Source of the DNA: a virus | Lineage: Duplodnaviria > Heunggongvirae > Uroviricota > Caudoviricetes | Virus record (IMG/VR): IMGVR_UViG_2711768006_000011 | Reading direction: 5' to 3' (one strand) | Length of the DNA stretch: 6,502 nt | Shown: one piece after another, positions 1 to 5,542 of the stretch | Numbering within the stretch: the first letter of the stretch is position 1 | Layout: each line of letters begins with the position of its first letter | Program-made: the position numbers and the translations under genes | The notes under the pieces: model-generated | Told to the model about the DNA's origin: nothing | Database searches by the model: none | What the model saw: the letters and a program-made list of their open reading frames with translations, nothing else

Positions 1-84
1 TACAATCGTCAGCGTCGTCACTCTCGTCTGGGGAATATCTCCCCGGCAGCCTTCAGGGAAAAATATCATCAGATGGCTGCTTAA
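1..84 (+). CDS. IS3-family transposase (OrfB-like), C-terminal fragment; 5' part lies outside the window
   Basis: Open frame from the window edge to TAA at 82-84; conserved integrase-core C-terminal motif as above. Confidence 0.6.
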   Translation, partial: YNRQRRHSRLGNISPAAFREKYHQMAA

Positions 85-127: not shown

Positions 128-525
128 GGATAGCGGTCATGTGATGCCGGTTTCCCGGTAACTCAGCACCGGTATCTGAGTCAACGTTTTCTCTACTGGG
201 TCATTTCCGATACGCCCTGCCTGCTGACAGGCTTTCATCACATCTGAAAATATAGCACCCTGACTGATACTGTAGTACCTAAGGTTCCAGAAACTGTGAT
301 GTATCCGGCACAGAAAAGCCCCTCCGGAGAGGGCTGGAGAGTGGCGCTATGTGCCATTGCATGATGCCGGGTGCCTCCCGGTGAATTCAGTACCAGCACC
401 TGAATCCGCGATTATCCCATATACCTACTCGCTGATTGCCCCTCCGCACAGGGGGATTCACCATGCCAGTTTCTTTTAACAAACTCCCCGCAAAACAGAC
501 AACTGTCAACCGTCTGAATTGTGAG

Positions 526-651
526 NNNNNNNNNNNNNNNNNNNNNNNNNNNNNNNNNNNNNNNNNNNNNNNNNNNNNNNNNNNNNNNNNNNNNNNNNNN
601 NNNNNNNNNNNNNNNNNNNNNNNNNNNNNNNNNNNNNNNNNNNNNNNNNNN
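526..651. other. Run of 126 N (assembly gap or masked sequence)
   Basis: Uninterrupted n characters at 526-651; truncates the tRNA at 652-704 and any ORF entering from either side. Confidence 1.
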
Positions 652-704
652 CCAGCGACCTGGCGATTATGAGTCGCTCGCTCTCACCACTGAGCTAAAG
701 GGCC
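652..704 (-). tRNA. tRNA with CAU anticodon, ileX-like (tRNA-Ile2 or Met); 3' part (T arm and acceptor 3' strand) lost in the N run
   Basis: Minus strand reads GGCCCTT-TA-GCTC-AGTGGTGA-GAGC-G-AGCGA-CTCATAA-TCGCC-AGGTC-GCTGG: acceptor 5' strand, D arm, anticodon arm with CAT at 34-36, variable loop and T-stem 5' strand. Closely resembles E. coli ileX as I recall it. The 5' end is 40 nt downstream of the methyltransferase stop. Confidence 0.8.
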
Positions 705-744
705 GGGAGCCGCATAATAACGACGCGTAATTAATTCTTCAATA

Positions 745-1803
745 TCATCCGTTCTGGCTGACTAAATCCTGTACTTCCCGAACCGTCTGCTCAAAACGTT
801 CAGTCTCCAGCTCAACGCCAATTGCACGACGCCCGAGCGCCAGTGCCGCTTTCACTGTCGAACCCAACCCCATGAAAAAATCTGCAATCAGGTCACCCGG
901 ACGACTGCTAGCGCTGATTATCTGCTGCAGCATTTCTGCCGGTTTTTCGCACGGATGTTTCCCGGGATAGAACTGCACCGGTTTATGCGTCCACACATCG
1001 GTATACGGCACCTGCACCGTCACGCCAAAATACCGCCGCAGATGTTTATATTCACTCAGCAGCTCCGCATACTGCCGGTTCAGTGAGGTATACGTATCCA
1101 CCAGCTGGTGGTGGAGCTTTTCCAGTTCACCACGCCGATGCTTCTCTTCTGCCACCCGGGCAAACAGCGCCTGTAATTTCAGATAATCGCTTTCATTCGG
1201 CAACTGCCACTGACCGGCACTGAACCAGTGCGACACCATGTTTTTCTTTCCTGTGGCATCTGCAATCTGTTTTGCCGTTATCCCCAGGGCAGCTCGCGCA
1301 TCACGAAAGTAAGAAATCAGCGGGGCCATCACATGCTGTTTCAGTGCACTGCCCTTCGCCGCATACCCGGCATCTTTCGGACGATACGGCCCCTGATAAT
1401 GTTCCGCGAACAGAATGCGCTCTGTGGCGGGGAAATACGCCCGCAGGCTTTCCTTGTTGCATCCGTTCCAGCGTCCGGACGGCTTCGCCCAGATAATATG
1501 GTTCAGCACACTGAAGCGTTCACGCATCATGATTTCGATATCAGATGCCAGGCGATGACCACAGAACAGGTAAAGACTTCCGGCAGGTTTCAGCACCCGC
1601 CAGAACTGCGCCAGACACTGGTCCAGCCACTTCAGGTAATCATCGTCGCCCTTCCACTGGTTATCCCAGCCCTCAGGCTTCACTTTAAAGTACGGCGGGT
1701 CCGTGACTATCAGGTCAACAGAATTTTCGGGTAACGACCGGATAAATTCCAGGCAGTCGGCGTTGATTAACTCACAACTGGATATTTTTACAGTATTAAG
1801 CAT
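745..1803 (-). CDS. Orphan DNA N6-adenine methyltransferase, beta-class (motif IV DPPY near the N-terminus, motif I FxGxG-like FFMGLGST near the C-terminus)
   Basis: 352-aa ORF. LIVTDPPY at residues 31-38, a central insert with a helix-turn-helix-like stretch (ITAKQIADATGKKNMVSHWF), and PGDLIADFFMGLGST near the C-terminus. No restriction endonuclease gene is adjacent. Weak Shine-Dalgarno, so the start is probable rather than certain. N4-cytosine specificity cannot be excluded from sequence alone. Confidence 0.85.
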   Translation of the reverse strand: MLNTVKISSCELINADCLEFIRSLPENSVDLIVTDPPYFKVKPEGWDNQWKGDDDYLKWLDQCLAQFWRVLKPAGSLYLFCGHRLASDIEIMMRERFSVLNHIIWAKPSGRWNGCNKESLRAYFPATERILFAEHYQGPYRPKDAGYAAKGSALKQHVMAPLISYFRDARAALGITAKQIADATGKKNMVSHWFSAGQWQLPNESDYLKLQALFARVAEEKHRRGELEKLHHQLVDTYTSLNRQYAELLSEYKHLRRYFGVTVQVPYTDVWTHKPVQFYPGKHPCEKPAEMLQQIISASSRPGDLIADFFMGLGSTVKAALALGRRAIGVELETERFEQTVREVQDLVSQNG

Positions 1804-1835
1804 GGATCATTAAGCCTGTCTCTGATAGGCTCATT

Positions 1836-1854
1836 CTGCTTTTGCGCAAAGCAG
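1836..1854. promoter_or_regulatory. 19-bp near-perfect palindrome CTGCTTT-TGCGC-AAAGCAG in the methyltransferase leader; candidate operator or RNA hairpin
   Basis: 7-bp arms at 1836-1842 and 1848-1854 are exact reverse complements; about 30 bp upstream of the methyltransferase start. Confidence 0.35.
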
Positions 1855-1895
1855 TGGGCCTGAGGTTTGCTTGTGAACCCAACGCATGAGCAGAT

Positions 1896-1926
1896 GGCTG
1901 GTGGGTGCCCCTAACACCCACCAGCC
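1896..1926. repeat. Perfect 12-bp inverted repeat with 7-nt loop (GGCTGGTGGGTG / CACCCACCAGCC); each arm contains a Chi octamer, giving a convergent Chi pair
   Basis: Arms at 1896-1907 and 1915-1926 are exact reverse complements. GCTGGTGG at 1897-1904 on the plus strand and at 1918-1925 on the minus strand. Confidence 0.8.
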
Positions 1927-1940
1927 GCCCATTTACCACA

Positions 1941-1967
1941 AATAAAAAAGCCTTCACTGCGGAAGGC
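1941..1967 (-). terminator. Rho-independent terminator overlapping the stop codon of the 65-aa ORF
   Basis: Minus-strand RNA GCCUUC-CGCAGU-GAAGGC followed by UUUUUUAUU; 6-bp GC-rich stem plus U tract. Confidence 0.75.
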
Positions 1968-2151
1968 GTCTGTAACAACCGAACTGATAGTCTGCCAGAC
2001 CCGCCATAACCAGCTGGGTCAGTATTAACTGGCAGCGTTCGCGTGAAAGGTAAGTATTCTGCGCTATCTCCCCGACTGTCGCCGGTTCGGTAACGCTTAA
2101 TTCATTAAACACCACTCTGGCGGTTTCTGTCATATCCTGCTGTTTTAGCAT
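1954..2151 (-). CDS. Small putative winged-helix DNA-binding protein (PapI/FaeA-like pattern), 65 aa
   Basis: ATG at 2151 preceded by AAGGA. The segment TVGEIAQNTYLSRERCQLILTQLVMAGLAD resembles the recognition helix and wing region of PapI/FaeA-type regulators. Lies between two terminators downstream of the pR'-like promoter. The family call is a by-eye inference. Confidence 0.55.
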   Translation of the reverse strand: MLKQQDMTETARVVFNELSVTEPATVGEIAQNTYLSRERCQLILTQLVMAGLADYQFGCYRRLPQ

Positions 2152-2270
2152 GTCTTTTCCTTTTCCGGTTAACGTGACACACCAATAACTCTTGTCGAAA
2201 AAGCCAGCAAGCTGAAAGACAGGTATTCACCGCCACCAGCGCGTTTACTGTACTGACGCGATTTCAGTCA

Positions 2271-2295
2271 TAAAAAACCCGCTCGGCGGCGGGTT
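2271..2295 (-). terminator. tR'-like rho-independent terminator downstream of the late promoter
   Basis: Minus-strand RNA CCCGC-CGCCGA-GCGGG followed by UUUUUUAU, about 40-60 nt downstream of the predicted start site. Confidence 0.7.
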
Positions 2296-2342
2296 GTAGA
2301 AACTCTTCTAACGTCAGGCATAAAACGCCCATCGTTATAACG

Positions 2343-2370
2343 AATTTACCACAGATTCCGGAAAAATCAA
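2343..2370 (-). promoter_or_regulatory. pR'-like late promoter immediately after the Q-like gene (-35 TTGATT, 16-bp spacer, -10 TAAATT), followed by a second -10-like element TATAAC
   Basis: Minus strand TTGATT (2365-2370), 16 bp, TAAATT (2343-2348), starting 5 nt after the stop codon of the Q-like gene. The downstream TATAAC could be a sigma70 pause-inducing element of the kind Q proteins engage. Confidence 0.5.
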
Positions 2371-2375
2371 CCTTG

Positions 2376-3197
2376 TTACCTAGTTACCTTTTTTAACTGC
2401 CGCTCAGCCCATGCTTCTTCAATATCAAACCGGGTCACCAGCGCATCATAAAATTTCTTAACTGTTTTTTCCCATGACGCGCGTGTTATCTGGTTTGTCA
2501 CCTCGCATATAGCATTAAATGCCTCCGTTGATGGTAGTCTTTCATAGCCACGACCACCACAACGCTGGCAGTCTCTGATAACAGGCATACCACGTTTTAC
2601 CGACTCTTCACGATGAATGGCGACACCACGCCCACGGCAATCCTTACAGGCGGTGGAAACCTCACCCTTTCCGCCACACTCCGGACAGGCAACTTTTACC
2701 ACCTCCCTGACTTTTTTCCATTCTTCCCAGTAAGACGGATACACACCTTTCGTACACTTTGCCCATACCGGCGGCTTACCATCCGGATACTGGATCTTGT
2801 TTGTAAAAACCTCGCTTTCAATAAATTTTTTTCCGTGACAGCAGGGGCACTGTTTTTTGCTCGCCGCGCTACGGGCATAATCTTCAAACGCATACGAAGC
2901 CATAATACGCATCACTGCCGGTTTTATTTCTGCCGGGAGTTTTCTTAACGCCGCCACGCGATCACACCGACTGAGTGCATATTCTGTCAGCAATTCTGTT
3001 GCCCGCTCTCTGTCATTCATACTAATGCCCATTTTCCCAAGGAACGCAGAAACCCCCATCTCAGCCCGATTCTGTGTCATGCCCTGCGCGGCCATCACAT
3101 CAGTGATACTCAGCGCATCTTTCGACGTTGAGGCCGATGCATCAGTCAGGCCGGGGGATTTTGGGGAGTAGTATTTCGGTAAATCTTCCAGTTTCAT
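2376..3197 (-). CDS. Q-like late-gene antitermination protein with four CxxC zinc-knuckle motifs
   Basis: 273-aa ORF. Motifs CPCCHGKK, CPECGGKG, CKDCRGRG and CQRCGGRG. Start ATG overlaps the rusA stop (ATGA). Sits immediately upstream of the promoter and terminator cassette and downstream of rusA, the canonical lambdoid position for Q. Family assignment from memory of quuQ-type proteins. Confidence 0.7.
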   Translation of the reverse strand: MKLEDLPKYYSPKSPGLTDASASTSKDALSITDVMAAQGMTQNRAEMGVSAFLGKMGISMNDRERATELLTEYALSRCDRVAALRKLPAEIKPAVMRIMASYAFEDYARSAASKKQCPCCHGKKFIESEVFTNKIQYPDGKPPVWAKCTKGVYPSYWEEWKKVREVVKVACPECGGKGEVSTACKDCRGRGVAIHREESVKRGMPVIRDCQRCGGRGYERLPSTEAFNAICEVTNQITRASWEKTVKKFYDALVTRFDIEEAWAERQLKKVTR

Positions 3198-3574
3198 TTT
3201 TTGACCTGCCCTTCAAGCATTATGGGATAAATCTTCACCCCCAGACGTCCACCAGATACTGGCTGAGCACGAACGATATTGATTTCATCAAACTGCTCAT
3301 CGTCCATTAGCAACCCCGCATGCGTCAGCGCATCCAGCGGCGCTTTCAGAATATTGTCCAGGTCACGGCGGCGCTTATCCGGTGGTTCTGCAATAATTTT
3401 TATTGCCAACCTTCCGGACAGGCTTAATTTCAGCCGCTGCTGGCGAACAATAAGCGCCACTGCCCGGCGATAACGCTCCCCGGCTTTTGATACAAAATAT
3501 GTGCTGCCACGACGACGCCAGTAAGTGTTCACCGTCGGCGGGTAAGGTAAAACAAATTCTATGCGCTCGGTCAT
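3194..3574 (-). CDS. rusA: RusA-family Holliday junction resolvase (crossover junction endodeoxyribonuclease)
   Basis: 126 aa with the conserved RRRDLDN motif (KRRRDLDNILKAPLDAL) and RusA-like N-terminus (LPYPPTVNTYW). ATG directly follows the upstream stop (TAAATG). Confidence 0.9.
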   Translation of the reverse strand: MTERIEFVLPYPPTVNTYWRRRGSTYFVSKAGERYRRAVALIVRQQRLKLSLSGRLAIKIIAEPPDKRRRDLDNILKAPLDALTHAGLLMDDEQFDEINIVRAQPVSGGRLGVKIYPIMLEGQVKK

Positions 3575-4633
3575 TTATGCTTTCCACTTCAGAACACCCG
3601 AATTTCTCGCGTGCATTAAAAAACGAATCAGCAACAACAGCTGACTGCCGTGTTTCTCTTCAAAATCTTTTACTCCGGCATGTAGTTCGTTACGGCATTT
3701 ACGGCATAACGGAATAACAAACAAATCATCAGCCTTTGTTCCCATCCCTCCCAGTCCATGACCAATGATGTGATGCGGATCATCTGCCTGATTGCCACAC
3801 GTCATGCATTTCTGCGTTTTTACCCAGCGCGTGTATACAGGCATCTCTTCCCGTTGTGATTTCTGGCGCTGGAGATACTGAGCCGGTGACTCCGGATCAA
3901 CGGCAATGCTGACCACCGTCTTTTCCTGTGGTGGGTTCTGTTGCTGGTGGACGTGAGGCAGTAACGCAATATTTTTTGTGCGCTGCTTCAGTATGCTGGT
4001 GGCTGTCTGCTCTCCCGGTATGATGTCGCTTTCACTGTACACAGAGCGAATTTTTTCCGCACGCAACCCCAGCGAACGACGTAATACCGCTTCCGGTAGC
4101 GCGTCCGCCACCTGATTGCGGACCGCCCACCAGGATAATTCAGCCAGAGATAATTCACGCTCCTGCGTACCGCTTATTGCGTGACCGATGACGTCAATCA
4201 TCCATGCTGACAGGTTTTGATGAGCAAGTTGCTCGAGTGATTCGGATGTCTGGTCACGCAGCTGGTTGTCGCAGTGCCAGCACAACACCATTGCGCCGGT
4301 ACCATAACGGTGAATGACGGTTTCGCTGTGATGATAATCGCCGTGTGGCCACTGGCAGGATTTAATATGGCGCAACAGCCAGTCAGACAATGCACCAGCA
4401 CCACCAGCAGCACGAATCACCCGTGCGTTACTGAAAAACGGCAGCAATGTTTTGTCTTCCACCAGCGGCTGGCGAGCGGCAGGAACGACCCCGGACGGCA
4501 GATTACGCATGCTTTTTGGTTCCGGCTCCACCAGTATTCTGCCGTTATGGAATGCTGACATTGATTCACGGCCTGGCTTAACGATAACCAGACCGAGTTC
4601 CGGTACCAGAACAGGTCGAAGTAATACCCGCAC
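3575..4633 (-). CDS. DUF968 / YdfU-like prophage protein with C-terminal HNH-type nuclease motif
   Basis: 352-aa frame. C-terminal CMTCG...DPHHIIGHG...PLCRKCRNELH resembles an HNH zinc-finger nuclease signature. Start is probably GTG at 4633 (GGAGG 4 nt upstream); an alternative ATG at 4561 would give 328 aa. Confidence 0.65.
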   Translation of the reverse strand: MRVLLRPVLVPELGLVIVKPGRESMSAFHNGRILVEPEPKSMRNLPSGVVPAARQPLVEDKTLLPFFSNARVIRAAGGAGALSDWLLRHIKSCQWPHGDYHHSETVIHRYGTGAMVLCWHCDNQLRDQTSESLEQLAHQNLSAWMIDVIGHAISGTQERELSLAELSWWAVRNQVADALPEAVLRRSLGLRAEKIRSVYSESDIIPGEQTATSILKQRTKNIALLPHVHQQQNPPQEKTVVSIAVDPESPAQYLQRQKSQREEMPVYTRWVKTQKCMTCGNQADDPHHIIGHGLGGMGTKADDLFVIPLCRKCRNELHAGVKDFEEKHGSQLLLLIRFLMHARNSGVLKWKA

Positions 4634-5110: not shown

Positions 5111-5142
5111 AAAATAAAAACAAAAACCCGCCGAAGCGGGTT
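5111..5142 (-). terminator. Rho-independent terminator with UUCG tetraloop, 3' of hok
   Basis: Minus-strand RNA AACCCGC-UUCG-GCGGGUU followed by UUUGUUUUUAUUUUC. Confidence 0.85.
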
Positions 5143-5210
5143 AAGTGTGGGTGCATTGAGGATGCCTGCCCCATCAGAGGTGGCGAGGGATTTCTCCCCC
5201 GCCTGGTCTC

Positions 5211-5366
5211 TTACTCCTCAGGTTCGTAAGCTGTGAAGACAGCGACCTCCGTCTGGCCGGTTCGAATTCGTACCTCGCAGAGGTCTTTCCTCGTTACCAG
5301 TGCCGTCACTATGACGGTTAAACAGATGACGATCAGGGCGATTAACATCGCCTTTTGCTGCTTCAT
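5211..5366 (-). CDS. hokD: Hok/Gef-family type I toxin (HokD/RelF-like), 51 aa
   Basis: MKQQKAMLIALIVICLTVIVTALVTRKDLCEVRIRTGQTEVAVFTAYEPEE has the hydrophobic helix plus conserved RKDLCEV..R.G..EVA.F.AYE core. ATG at 5366 is preceded by AAGGAG at 9 nt. The tool frame extends in frame to ATG 5423 (70 aa), which I treat as an upstream in-frame extension, not the toxin start. Confidence 0.9.
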   Translation of the reverse strand: MKQQKAMLIALIVICLTVIVTALVTRKDLCEVRIRTGQTEVAVFTAYEPEE

Positions 5367-5542
5367 AGCCTGCTTCTCCTTGCCTTTCGGCACGTAAGAG
5401 GCTAACCTAGATTTGCCGTTCATAGATTGAGCCTCAGATTAATGTTAAGCGTCTTGCCGGACGCGTAATGTTAACTGGGGCTTTTCTCTATCTGCCTTTT
5501 GGTGTTCATGCCTGAGACAGATAGCCTCAAGCACCCGCTGCA

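Follow-up and report, generated by a model that had tools for sequence, protein, structure and literature searches.

We describe here a cassette of two genes and a structured RNA in a 6,502-nt stretch of Caudoviricetes DNA (IMG/VR record IMGVR_UViG_2711768006_000011), which we call the window and in whose full length all coordinates are given. In this cassette a small gene for a stand-alone winged-helix protein of 65 amino acids (aa) is followed by a conserved, structured leader RNA of about 150 nt and then by the gene for an adenine methyltransferase (the methylase) that is an apparent orthologue of M.EcoGII. The unit is very probably a late anti-restriction methylase cassette, and by analogy it is best read as a late-expressed counterpart of com-mom in phage Mu, where Com activates the translation of mom, a late gene that is toxic and serves anti-restriction. 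The winged-helix gene and the leader probably keep the toxic methylase silent until the phage kills the cell. Taken as a whole, the explanation that we favor on balance is a late cassette of winged-helix gene, leader RNA, and non-specific methylase in which the small protein acts as a regulator on the leader; within it, the role of the winged-helix protein as a regulator of methylase expression is a tentative assignment, which we hold with slightly less than even confidence.

The discoverers of M.EcoGII found it to be silent in its host and harmful when expressed, and they left its control open (PMC5778455). We propose a testable control circuit in which a pair of terminators is combined with an RNA switch and a small protein dedicated to the cassette. 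If the circuit is true, it governs the restriction escape of these phages, the toxin-converting ones included, as they move between strains. What is new here is that the small gene and the methylase travel together and that the structured leader between them matches no Rfam family.

The methylase is an orthologue of M.EcoGII

The elements of the cassette, in order along the minus strand, are as follows.

2326..2370, minus strand: pR'-like late promoter, read by eye from the sequence
2295..2266, minus strand (hairpin 2295..2276): first intrinsic terminator, the tR' equivalent; AACCCGCCGCCGAGCGGGTT followed by TTTTATGACT; 7 bp, 5 of them GC, with a T-run
2152..2213, minus strand: conserved 5' region of the small gene, from an alignment of 21 loci
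2151..1954, minus strand: 65-aa open reading frame (ORF), PHROG 331
1967..1940, minus strand (hairpin 1967..1950): second hairpin/terminator; GCCTTCCGCAGTGAAGGC followed by TTTTTTATTT; 6 bp
1801..1949, minus strand: leader RNA of about 150 nt, the spacer between the small gene and the methylase
1803..745, minus strand: methyltransferase ORF, 352 aa, PF01555

As the first-pass annotation of this DNA had described, the 65-aa ORF lies upstream of the 352-aa methyltransferase ORF and both are accompanied by two terminators, all on the minus strand, which in the ORF listing of the window carries all the genes of interest. The gap between the two ORFs is 150 nt. The methylase matches N6_N4_Mtase (PF01555) with E 7.9e-42 over residues 29-340, and its motifs, DPPY at 35-38 and FxGxG at 309-314 (FFMGLG), stand in the beta-class order. 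No restriction gene adjoins it in the window or in the homologous locus, so it is an orphan, and the earlier description of a beta-class, orphan N6-adenine methyltransferase is borne out. PADLOC returns MTase_II (E 4.6e-163), that is, generic type II methylase models.

Compared with M.EcoGII, the methylase is identical at 324 of 349 residues (93%), where the M.EcoGII sequence was taken from the supplement of PMC11551740 as machine-read text with a few reading errors. M.EcoGII methylates adenine in any context, is prophage-borne, unexpressed in the lysogen and deleterious when expressed, and is fully active alone both in vitro and in vivo; a very similar enzyme was noted in phage 1720a-02 (PMC5778455), a phage that matches the window interval, small ORF included. 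Homologs that are 92-93% similar were predicted to be "nonspecific," with no methylation motif in the lysogen methylomes (PMC6602927). By homology, then, we take the window methylase to be the M.EcoGII orthologue and its specificity to be known on that basis; the first-pass annotation had given the target sequence as unknown, a statement that the match to an enzyme of any-context adenine methylation overturns. The methylase itself is already known, and M.EcoGII is a widely used reagent for footprinting and for long-read chromatin methods.

The small gene and the methylase travel together

When loci are collected from the side of the small protein, a methylase lies about 150-190 nt downstream in 23 of 24 species-representative loci, and the exception (L020) is a remnant. 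When they are collected from the side of the methylase, the small gene is present in all 78 IMG/VR loci with enough upstream DNA, among which the Q types differ. The linkage persists in sequences that have diverged to as little as about 53% identity, across a number of host genera, and beside Q modules of different kinds, and in Stx2c phages a divergent allele of the small protein occupies the same slot. From these loci, we conclude that the small gene and the methylase form one mobile cassette, with a linkage that is not absolute.

Two decayed cassettes were seen along the way. One (L020 4001-4302) retains a truncated small gene and the leader without a methylase, and in the other (L141 2129-2458) an internal deletion fuses the leader to the C-terminal quarter of the methylase.

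The spacer is a conserved, structured leader RNA

The 150-nt spacer is a conserved structured RNA, a point that the first-pass annotation missed and the most unusual element of the interval. Its parts are listed below.

1932..1927 (AUGGGC) with 1891..1886 (GCUCAU), minus strand: outer helix of P1, RNAalifold with covariation
1926..1915 with 1907..1896, minus strand: inner hairpin of P1
1859..1855 (GCCCA), minus strand: alternative partner of the leader 5' strand, overlapping another helix
1878..1869 (GUUCACAAGC) with 1815..1805 (GCUU..UGAUC), minus strand: P3, ending 1 nt before the methylase AUG
CUGCUUU with AAAGCAG, minus strand: P5 hairpin

The spacer is conserved far above adjacent synonymous sites. 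RNAalifold gives a long hairpin domain (P1) and a second domain closed by P3 (GGUCA-CAAGC with GCUUA-CUGAUC), and because G-U pairs are abundant, the structure is assigned to the sense strand. P3 pairs bases up to position -3 of the methylase AUG, and 8 of its 9 pairs are changed on both sides. No conserved Shine-Dalgarno sequence stands in front of that AUG in the aligned leader loci. A GATC 3 nt before it is shared without exception by the 19 loci aligned, and most spacers also hold a near-perfect 16-bp palindrome.

A covariance model built from 19 sequences finds one copy of the leader per locus, always directly upstream of the methylase gene. With this model the leader is also found before distant methylase homologs in PY54 (E 5e-10), phiKO2 (2.4e-10), N15 (1.7e-7), VHML (2.9e-9), Aeromonas phage phiARM81ld (1.8e-5), and Vibrio phages (1e-4 to 1e-7). 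For the structure we relied on a model-fitted alignment with slid and shuffled controls, on independent folds of single sequences, and on a per-sequence table of helices. In the model-fitted alignment of 27 sequences, 93% of cells are paired, vs 28-41% when the partners are slid by 1-3 columns; the covariation score is 0.416, vs at most 0.108 in the slid controls, and 28 of the 37 pairs change on both sides. Single-sequence folds of the distant leaders independently return the same two-domain architecture, and the hairpin arms are visibly complementary despite wholly different sequences.

The leader 5' strand, (A)UGGGC, has two mutually exclusive partners, which are the proximal GCUCAU of outer P1 and the distal GCCCA. 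Both partners track the 5' strand, such that in Aeromonas CGUGGC is met by GCCACG at both sites and in Mixta UGAGC is met by a distal GCUCA. Judged from these sequences, alternative co-varying pairings of this kind are the signature of an RNA switch, and we consider it likely that the leader is a cis-regulatory one. A cmscan of the whole window against Rfam at E<=1 gave no minus-strand match at 1801-1949 and, on the opposite strand, only a chance-level match to P26 (E 0.097). The leader is thus a candidate new regulatory RNA family in phages of Enterobacterales, Vibrio, and Aeromonas. A literature search on the N15/phiKO2/PY54 leader found no papers, and a search on a winged-helix analogue of com-mom found the precedent of com-mom and non-specific methyltransferases and no description of the 65-aa protein or the leader.

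Several candidates that overlap or resemble the leader were set aside. Three IMG/VR pattern matches without a methylase (L161, L177, and L183) lie inside long ORFs, are unconfirmed by the covariance model, and are taken as chance. A 60-aa ORF at 1978..1796 over the spacer is not a gene, as it belongs to no Pfam or PHROGs family and 1-base indels among species break its frames. Separately, the ORF MAR_56A of Vibrio phage MAR (L121 1287-1445) overlies the leader RNA and, because of that location, is unlikely to be a true gene; its entry looks like an annotation error in the public record.

The 65-aa protein is a winged helix under purifying selection

In 21 loci spread over about a dozen genera, the 65-aa gene shows 0.08-0.39 non-synonymous differences and saturation at synonymous sites (0.62-0.88), from which we conclude that it is a real gene under strong purifying selection and not a chance ORF. 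The protein matches PHROG 331 (function unknown) with E 1.4e-37, and the PHROG 331-type family is narrow, with 61 representative clusters that are essentially all from Enterobacterales. An AlphaFold2 model with a mean predicted local distance difference test (pLDDT) of 91.7 has three helices and a beta hairpin, and its fold is nearest to the DNA-binding domains of MarR, ArsR, TrmB, and IclR. From the model we are confident that the protein is a stand-alone winged helix.

The first-pass annotation had seen a PapI/FaeA-like recognition helix here. Of that claim, the winged-helix fold stands on the AlphaFold2 model and the fold search, and the PapI/FaeA affiliation falls, since neither profile nor structure searches support it: FaeA (PF04703) is not among the Pfam matches at E<=1, and no PapI chain was retrieved from the PDB at E<=10, whether the query was the protein alone or a profile of 30 sequences. 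Other family names fare no better. The name TrmB, which NCBI annotation uses, reflects only generic winged-helix similarity, as PF01978 scores 18.0 bits vs a cut-off of 25.6 (E 0.0026) and there is no NCBIfam match; the Com zinc ribbon (PF10122) is absent from the Pfam search; and a role in defense was rejected, PADLOC giving only a weak SWIM_XIII match (E 0.0035, 14 bits). It adds to the winged-helix class a new, uncharacterised protein with a specific genomic partnership.

Two segments of the protein, the N-terminus MLKQQDMT and helix 3 RCQLILTQLVMAGL, are kept in nearly all loci compared. Within helix 3, C40, Q41, T45, and Q46 do not vary among 30 aligned proteins, and each is kept in 19-21 of the 21 loci; because the codons of this segment vary freely, the constraint acts on the protein. 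The MLKQQDMT tail is the lower-confidence region of the model, and the first six codons of the gene show restricted codon use, so the conservation of the N-terminus is partly at the nucleotide level. The protein occurs as two alleles, which have MLKQQDMT and helix 3 in common and are set apart by helix 2 and the wing. The second allele (Stx2c phage L107 3729-3929; also L022 and L024-L026) is about 50% identical to that of the window and is always accompanied by the same leader and methylase.

The conserved region 5' of the small gene contains CTTGCTG (2211..2205), GAGTTAT..GT.TGTCAC, and a Shine-Dalgarno sequence, AAGGA, 7 nt before the ATG. The CTTGCTG lies about 55 nt upstream of the ATG and is complementary to codons 4-6 of the small gene (CAGCAGG; 2136-2142), and in two loci with CTTGATG the region of codons 4-6 reads AATCAA. 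This complementarity may mark a structure around the small-gene start; RNAalifold does not support a consensus RNA structure there despite the 7-nt complementarity. A search of the cassette for repeated operator-like motifs gave only short two-copy matches, which are likely chance, and no C-box-like repeat.

A putative late promoter and two terminators precede the methylase

Immediately 3' of the Q stop codon (2376), we read by eye a promoter with the -35 element TTGATT (2370..2365), a 16-nt spacer, and an extended -10 element, TGgTAAATT (2351..2343). The -10 element is followed by CGTTAT and then by AACGATGGGCG (2336..2326), which is like the lambda sigma70-dependent pause element. We take this promoter to resemble lambda pR' (-10 TAAATT, AACGAT pause), and loci with the same Q family (L010 and L022) hold the related motifs AATGATGGGAG and AACGATGGGC.

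The first terminator sits between the Q stop codon and the small ORF, and 20 related loci have a hairpin and T-run at that position with differing stem sequences. At the second hairpin, the stop codon of the small ORF forms the 3' end of the loop and abuts the 3' arm, and because of this position, translation of the small gene to its stop could also suppress the second terminator. The second hairpin is maintained in relatives by compensatory changes (e.g., GCCTCC/GGGGGC, CTGCC/GGCAG, and CTCCGC/GCGGAG), and its T-run is weaker in most of them. Thus both terminators reported in the first-pass annotation recur at the same positions in related loci while their stem sequences differ. The whole window has 16 terminator-like sites, vs 6.4 +/- 2.7 in shuffles, and directly 3' of the methylase the terminator scan detects no terminator; tRNA genes stand there instead.

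The lambdoid Q/pR'/tR' arrangement is found here as a Q gene (PF03589), a by-eye promoter with its pause motif, and an intrinsic terminator. In Stx (Shiga toxin) phages, the late promoter is constitutively active, and in the absence of Q its transcripts end at a nearby terminator (PMC7547250). The Q gene, pR'-like promoter, and terminators are most naturally read, as first proposed, as a unit for anti-restriction that is expressed late and depends on Q, and this reading agrees with published work on M.EcoGII (PMC5778455) and on pR'/tR' of Stx phages (PMC7547250).

Genomic setting

The neighbors of the cassette are as follows.

4633..3575, minus strand: DUF968/HNH gene, the upstream end of the gene series
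3574..3194, minus strand: RusA gene, between the DUF968/HNH gene and Q
3197..2376, minus strand: Q-type antiterminator gene, 273 aa; Pfam Antiterm PF03589, E 1.6e-53; directly upstream of the small gene/methylase unit
526..715, minus strand: tRNA gene(s), 3' of the methylase; a tRNA-Ile-like gene can be read in its 5' part, at about 712..652

The Q protein also has a DnaJ-type CxxCxGxG zinc motif, and its counterpart in the homologous E. coli locus is annotated "antitermination protein." A run of 126 N at 526-651 hides most of the tRNA cluster, including the remainder of the tRNA-Ile-like gene, and is the cause of ARAGORN reporting no tRNA in the window; in homologous loci, tRNA-Ile/Arg/Arg or tRNA-Ile/Arg occupy the same place. 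In relatives, the methylase is followed by the tRNAs, then by Shiga toxin or other cargo, and then by the lysis genes, and in many Shiga-toxin phages the cassette is located between Q and stx. The 1.7-kb interval matches 254 phage records, chiefly Stx2-converting phages, phiP27, and 1720a-02, and it is matched in 3177 of 5426 complete E. coli genomes, with coverage of 80% or more in 2010. The best explanation of this interval is that it is the start of a late operon, putatively Q-dependent, in a lambdoid prophage of the Stx-phage type.

The window holds other elements outside the cassette. Downstream of the tRNA region, the small RNA (sRNA) STnc100 of Rfam has a full-length match at 306-495 (minus strand; 123.6 bits, E 1.3e-27) and a second match, weak and partial, at 79-267. 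A hok/sok-type toxin-antitoxin locus lies at 5211-5536 (minus strand), where the Rfam sok match (112 bits, E 9.5e-26) covers 5361-5536 and overlaps an ORF (5423..5211) whose end is a Hok-like peptide. A below-threshold match to isrK, a prophage sRNA, at 5121-5207 (minus strand; 25.8 bits, E 0.017) ends at a strong terminator (5142..5125) and may represent an sRNA of the isrK kind that is encoded ahead of the nin-region genes. Finally, an ORF that enters from the left edge at 1-84 (plus strand) ends in ...YNRQRRHSRLGNISPAAFREKYHQMAA followed by the stop; by eye this looks like the end of a transposase of the IS3 family, in which case an insertion sequence would follow the late-region cargo.

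Proposed mechanism and the evidence that weighs against it

We propose that in the lysogen transcripts from pR' would stop at the first terminator (2295..2276), and that any that read through would then meet the second hairpin at the end of the small gene. Methylase mRNA made in the lysogen would be poorly translatable because its AUG has no conserved Shine-Dalgarno sequence and P3 pairs the bases just 5' of it. After induction, Q-modified RNA polymerase would pass both terminators, the leader would switch between its exclusive pairings to a form that permits translation, and in the short time left before lysis the methylase would hypermethylate the DNA of progeny phages, so that they would be broadly protected from restriction in the next host. 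As a dedicated nucleic-acid-binding regulator, the 65-aa protein would act on the leader, either on the RNA or on the DNA that encodes it, and would time or tune the methylase as the counterpart of Com in Mu and of the Com-like genes beside related methylases in Aeromonas and Vibrio phages. What the sequences show is to which family the methylase belongs, how the small protein folds and that it is under selection, the synteny, and the covariation and alternative pairings of the RNA; Q dependence, translational repression by P3, late hypermethylation, and a regulatory role for the winged helix are inferred.

A bolder form of this proposal is that the leader belongs to a new class of cis-regulatory switch, either a riboswitch (for a methyl-cycle metabolite, for example) or a protein-operated one, which the 65-aa protein flips as an RNA-binding winged helix and non-homologous replacement of Com. 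We regard this form as unlikely, though worth stating.

A number of observations weigh against the proposed mechanism. Concerning the small protein, its role as a regulator on the leader is one that we infer. Four enterobacterial virus contigs have a high-scoring leader and a methylase without the small gene, and in N15, PY54, and phiKO2 the leader directly follows the late terminator with no small gene between; because the leader exists without the small gene, the small protein is not essential for leader function and would be an accessory regulator at most. The protein is slightly acidic overall, as counted from its sequence, which is unusual for a nucleic-acid binder, and winged helices bind DNA far more often than RNA. 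Concerning the leader, the covariation figures come from the model-fitted alignment. When the distant leaders are aligned with MAFFT by sequence alone, the variable hairpin is misaligned and RNAalifold recovers no helix but outer P1. In the window copy, P3 contains a U-U mismatch. The promoter was assigned by eye, and at 8 of 12 positions vs the consensus it falls under the threshold of a generic scan. Finally, the window methylase carries S313L, reading FFMGLGST at residues 309-316 (codons for 312-313 at 865-870). Among 104 homologs the change is shared only by L027, which is identical to the window, and the 103 others have GSG in motif I. It lies in the motif that binds S-adenosylmethionine (AdoMet), so this copy of the methylase may be impaired or altered in AdoMet binding.

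Alternative explanations

The alternative that survives best, though we still think it unlikely, is that the 65-aa protein is an ordinary DNA-binding transcription factor, like a C protein or a repressor/activator, that acts at an operator in the cassette independently of the leader, so that its control would lie in transcription and not in translation. The candidate operators would be the near-palindrome GCTTTAGCGCTAAAGC or the conserved block upstream of the small gene. The fold, nearest to the MarR/ArsR/TrmB/IclR DNA-binding domains, is in keeping with this alternative, as are the polar residues of the recognition helix, invariant in close homologs and near-invariant across loci, and the 16-bp palindrome in most spacers. 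A weak, possible homolog, gp51 of N15, lies just upstream of the annotated late promoter, and the leader is present without the small gene in some phages. However, the palindrome co-varies as an RNA hairpin and its sequence differs in distant members, which an RNA stem fits better than a fixed operator. Nor does the window show an evident promoter in the stretch from the small gene to the methylase, and the protein has no obvious dimerisation element beyond the winged helix.

It is less probable still that the 65-aa protein acts at the level of the enzyme or its DNA substrate, either as a partner of the methylase (an antitoxin or specificity factor) or as a reader of methyl-adenine DNA. The strict co-inheritance with the methylase and the toxicity of M.EcoGII (PMC5778455) are consistent with such a role, the MLKQQDMT tail could be a protein-contact motif, and winged-helix domains of prokaryotes are documented as N6-methyladenine sensors (PMC11037411; bioRxiv 10.1101/2023.06.07.544091). 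However, M.EcoGII needs no partner for full activity (PMC5778455), the conservation of the tail is in part that of restricted codons, no similarity to a methyl-reading winged helix of the DpnI type is prominent among the fold matches, and some phages have the methylase without the small gene.

We consider it quite improbable that the small gene is a moron, a passenger of unrelated function that stays beside the methylase only through one recombination module. Its PHROGs entry carries no function, it is dispensable in some phages, and the heads of lambdoid late regions commonly collect morons. However, the linkage holds across the divergence, host genera, and Q modules given above, the recognition helix is under strong selection, and unrelated Com-like small regulators occupy the equivalent slot beside related methylases. 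The weakest alternative, which the first-pass annotation had raised as Dam/GATC-type heritable epigenetic control and to which we give almost no credence, is that the small protein is a PapI/FaeA-type co-regulator in a phase-variable switch: PapI is likewise a small winged-helix protein and the GATC before the methylase AUG is invariant, but the family searches above go against it, the operon runs on into lysis genes, and an inherited methylation state of the Dam type is rejected because lysis leaves no surviving lineage.

Comparison with known systems

The closest relatives of the methylase, M.EcoGII and M.EcoGI of E. coli O104:H4 C227-11, share with it the beta-class order and the status of an orphan carried on a prophage. 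Compared with M.EcoGII, the window copy is 352 aa long, has a different C-terminal tail, and bears S313L.

The C proteins of restriction-modification systems are also small DNA-binding proteins encoded upstream of a gene that is harmful if expressed prematurely, and they too control timing. They are, however, Xre-type helix-turn-helix dimers that bind C-box operators and regulate restriction genes, whereas the window cassette has a winged helix, no restriction gene, and no C-box-like repeat that we could find. PapI and FaeA (PF04703) resemble the 65-aa protein in small size and in the winged-helix fold class. They differ in that no sequence or profile similarity links the two, and in that theirs is a fimbrial switch, with an Lrp/GATC/Dam operon setting that is not found here, whereas ours is a phage late operon; the partner is Dam in one case and a non-specific methylase in the other.

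N15, phiKO2, and PY54 share the methylase family (56-60% identity) and have the leader directly before it (E 1.7e-7 to 2.4e-10), and just upstream they encode a small protein with weak winged-helix signals. Their order is the gp51 gene, the late promoter, a terminator, the leader, the methylase (gene 52), and the lysis genes, so that the methylase is the first late gene. Unlike the small gene of the window, gp51 precedes the annotated late promoter and terminator and hence lies outside the late transcript. For N15 gp51, homology to the 65-aa protein is possible but weak (hhalign probability 43%, E 2.5e-4), and for an 82-aa upstream ORF of the Vibrio type it was not established (E about 0.015). 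In N15 (L109 1501-1735), the annotated start of gene 52 is 234 nt downstream of the start implied by homology, which is likely an annotation problem.

The com-mom operon of Mu provides the nearest functional parallel. In both cases a small regulator gene, or what would be one here, lies directly upstream of a late, host-toxic, anti-restriction gene for adenine modification, with which co-transcription would be expected in the window, and the RNA structure that covers the downstream start region in Mu would have its counterpart here in the predicted P3. The differences are that Com is a zinc ribbon and the window protein a winged helix, that the small gene of the window lies 5' of the leader and does not overlap the modification gene, and that the single stem-loop of Mu corresponds here to a 150-nt RNA of several helices with alternative pairings. 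Mu-like prophages have non-specific adenine methyltransferases in the mom position behind com and under the control of Com (PMC3299994). Among phages that have the methylase homologs discussed here, p55 of Aeromonas phage phiARM81ld lies between the leader and the methylase and matches Pfam Zn_ribbon_Com at 27.9 bits vs a cut-off of 22.9, and Vibrio phages have similar CxxC...CxxC ORFs in the same position. The cassette in the window may thus be a case in which a winged helix has replaced the Com zinc ribbon.

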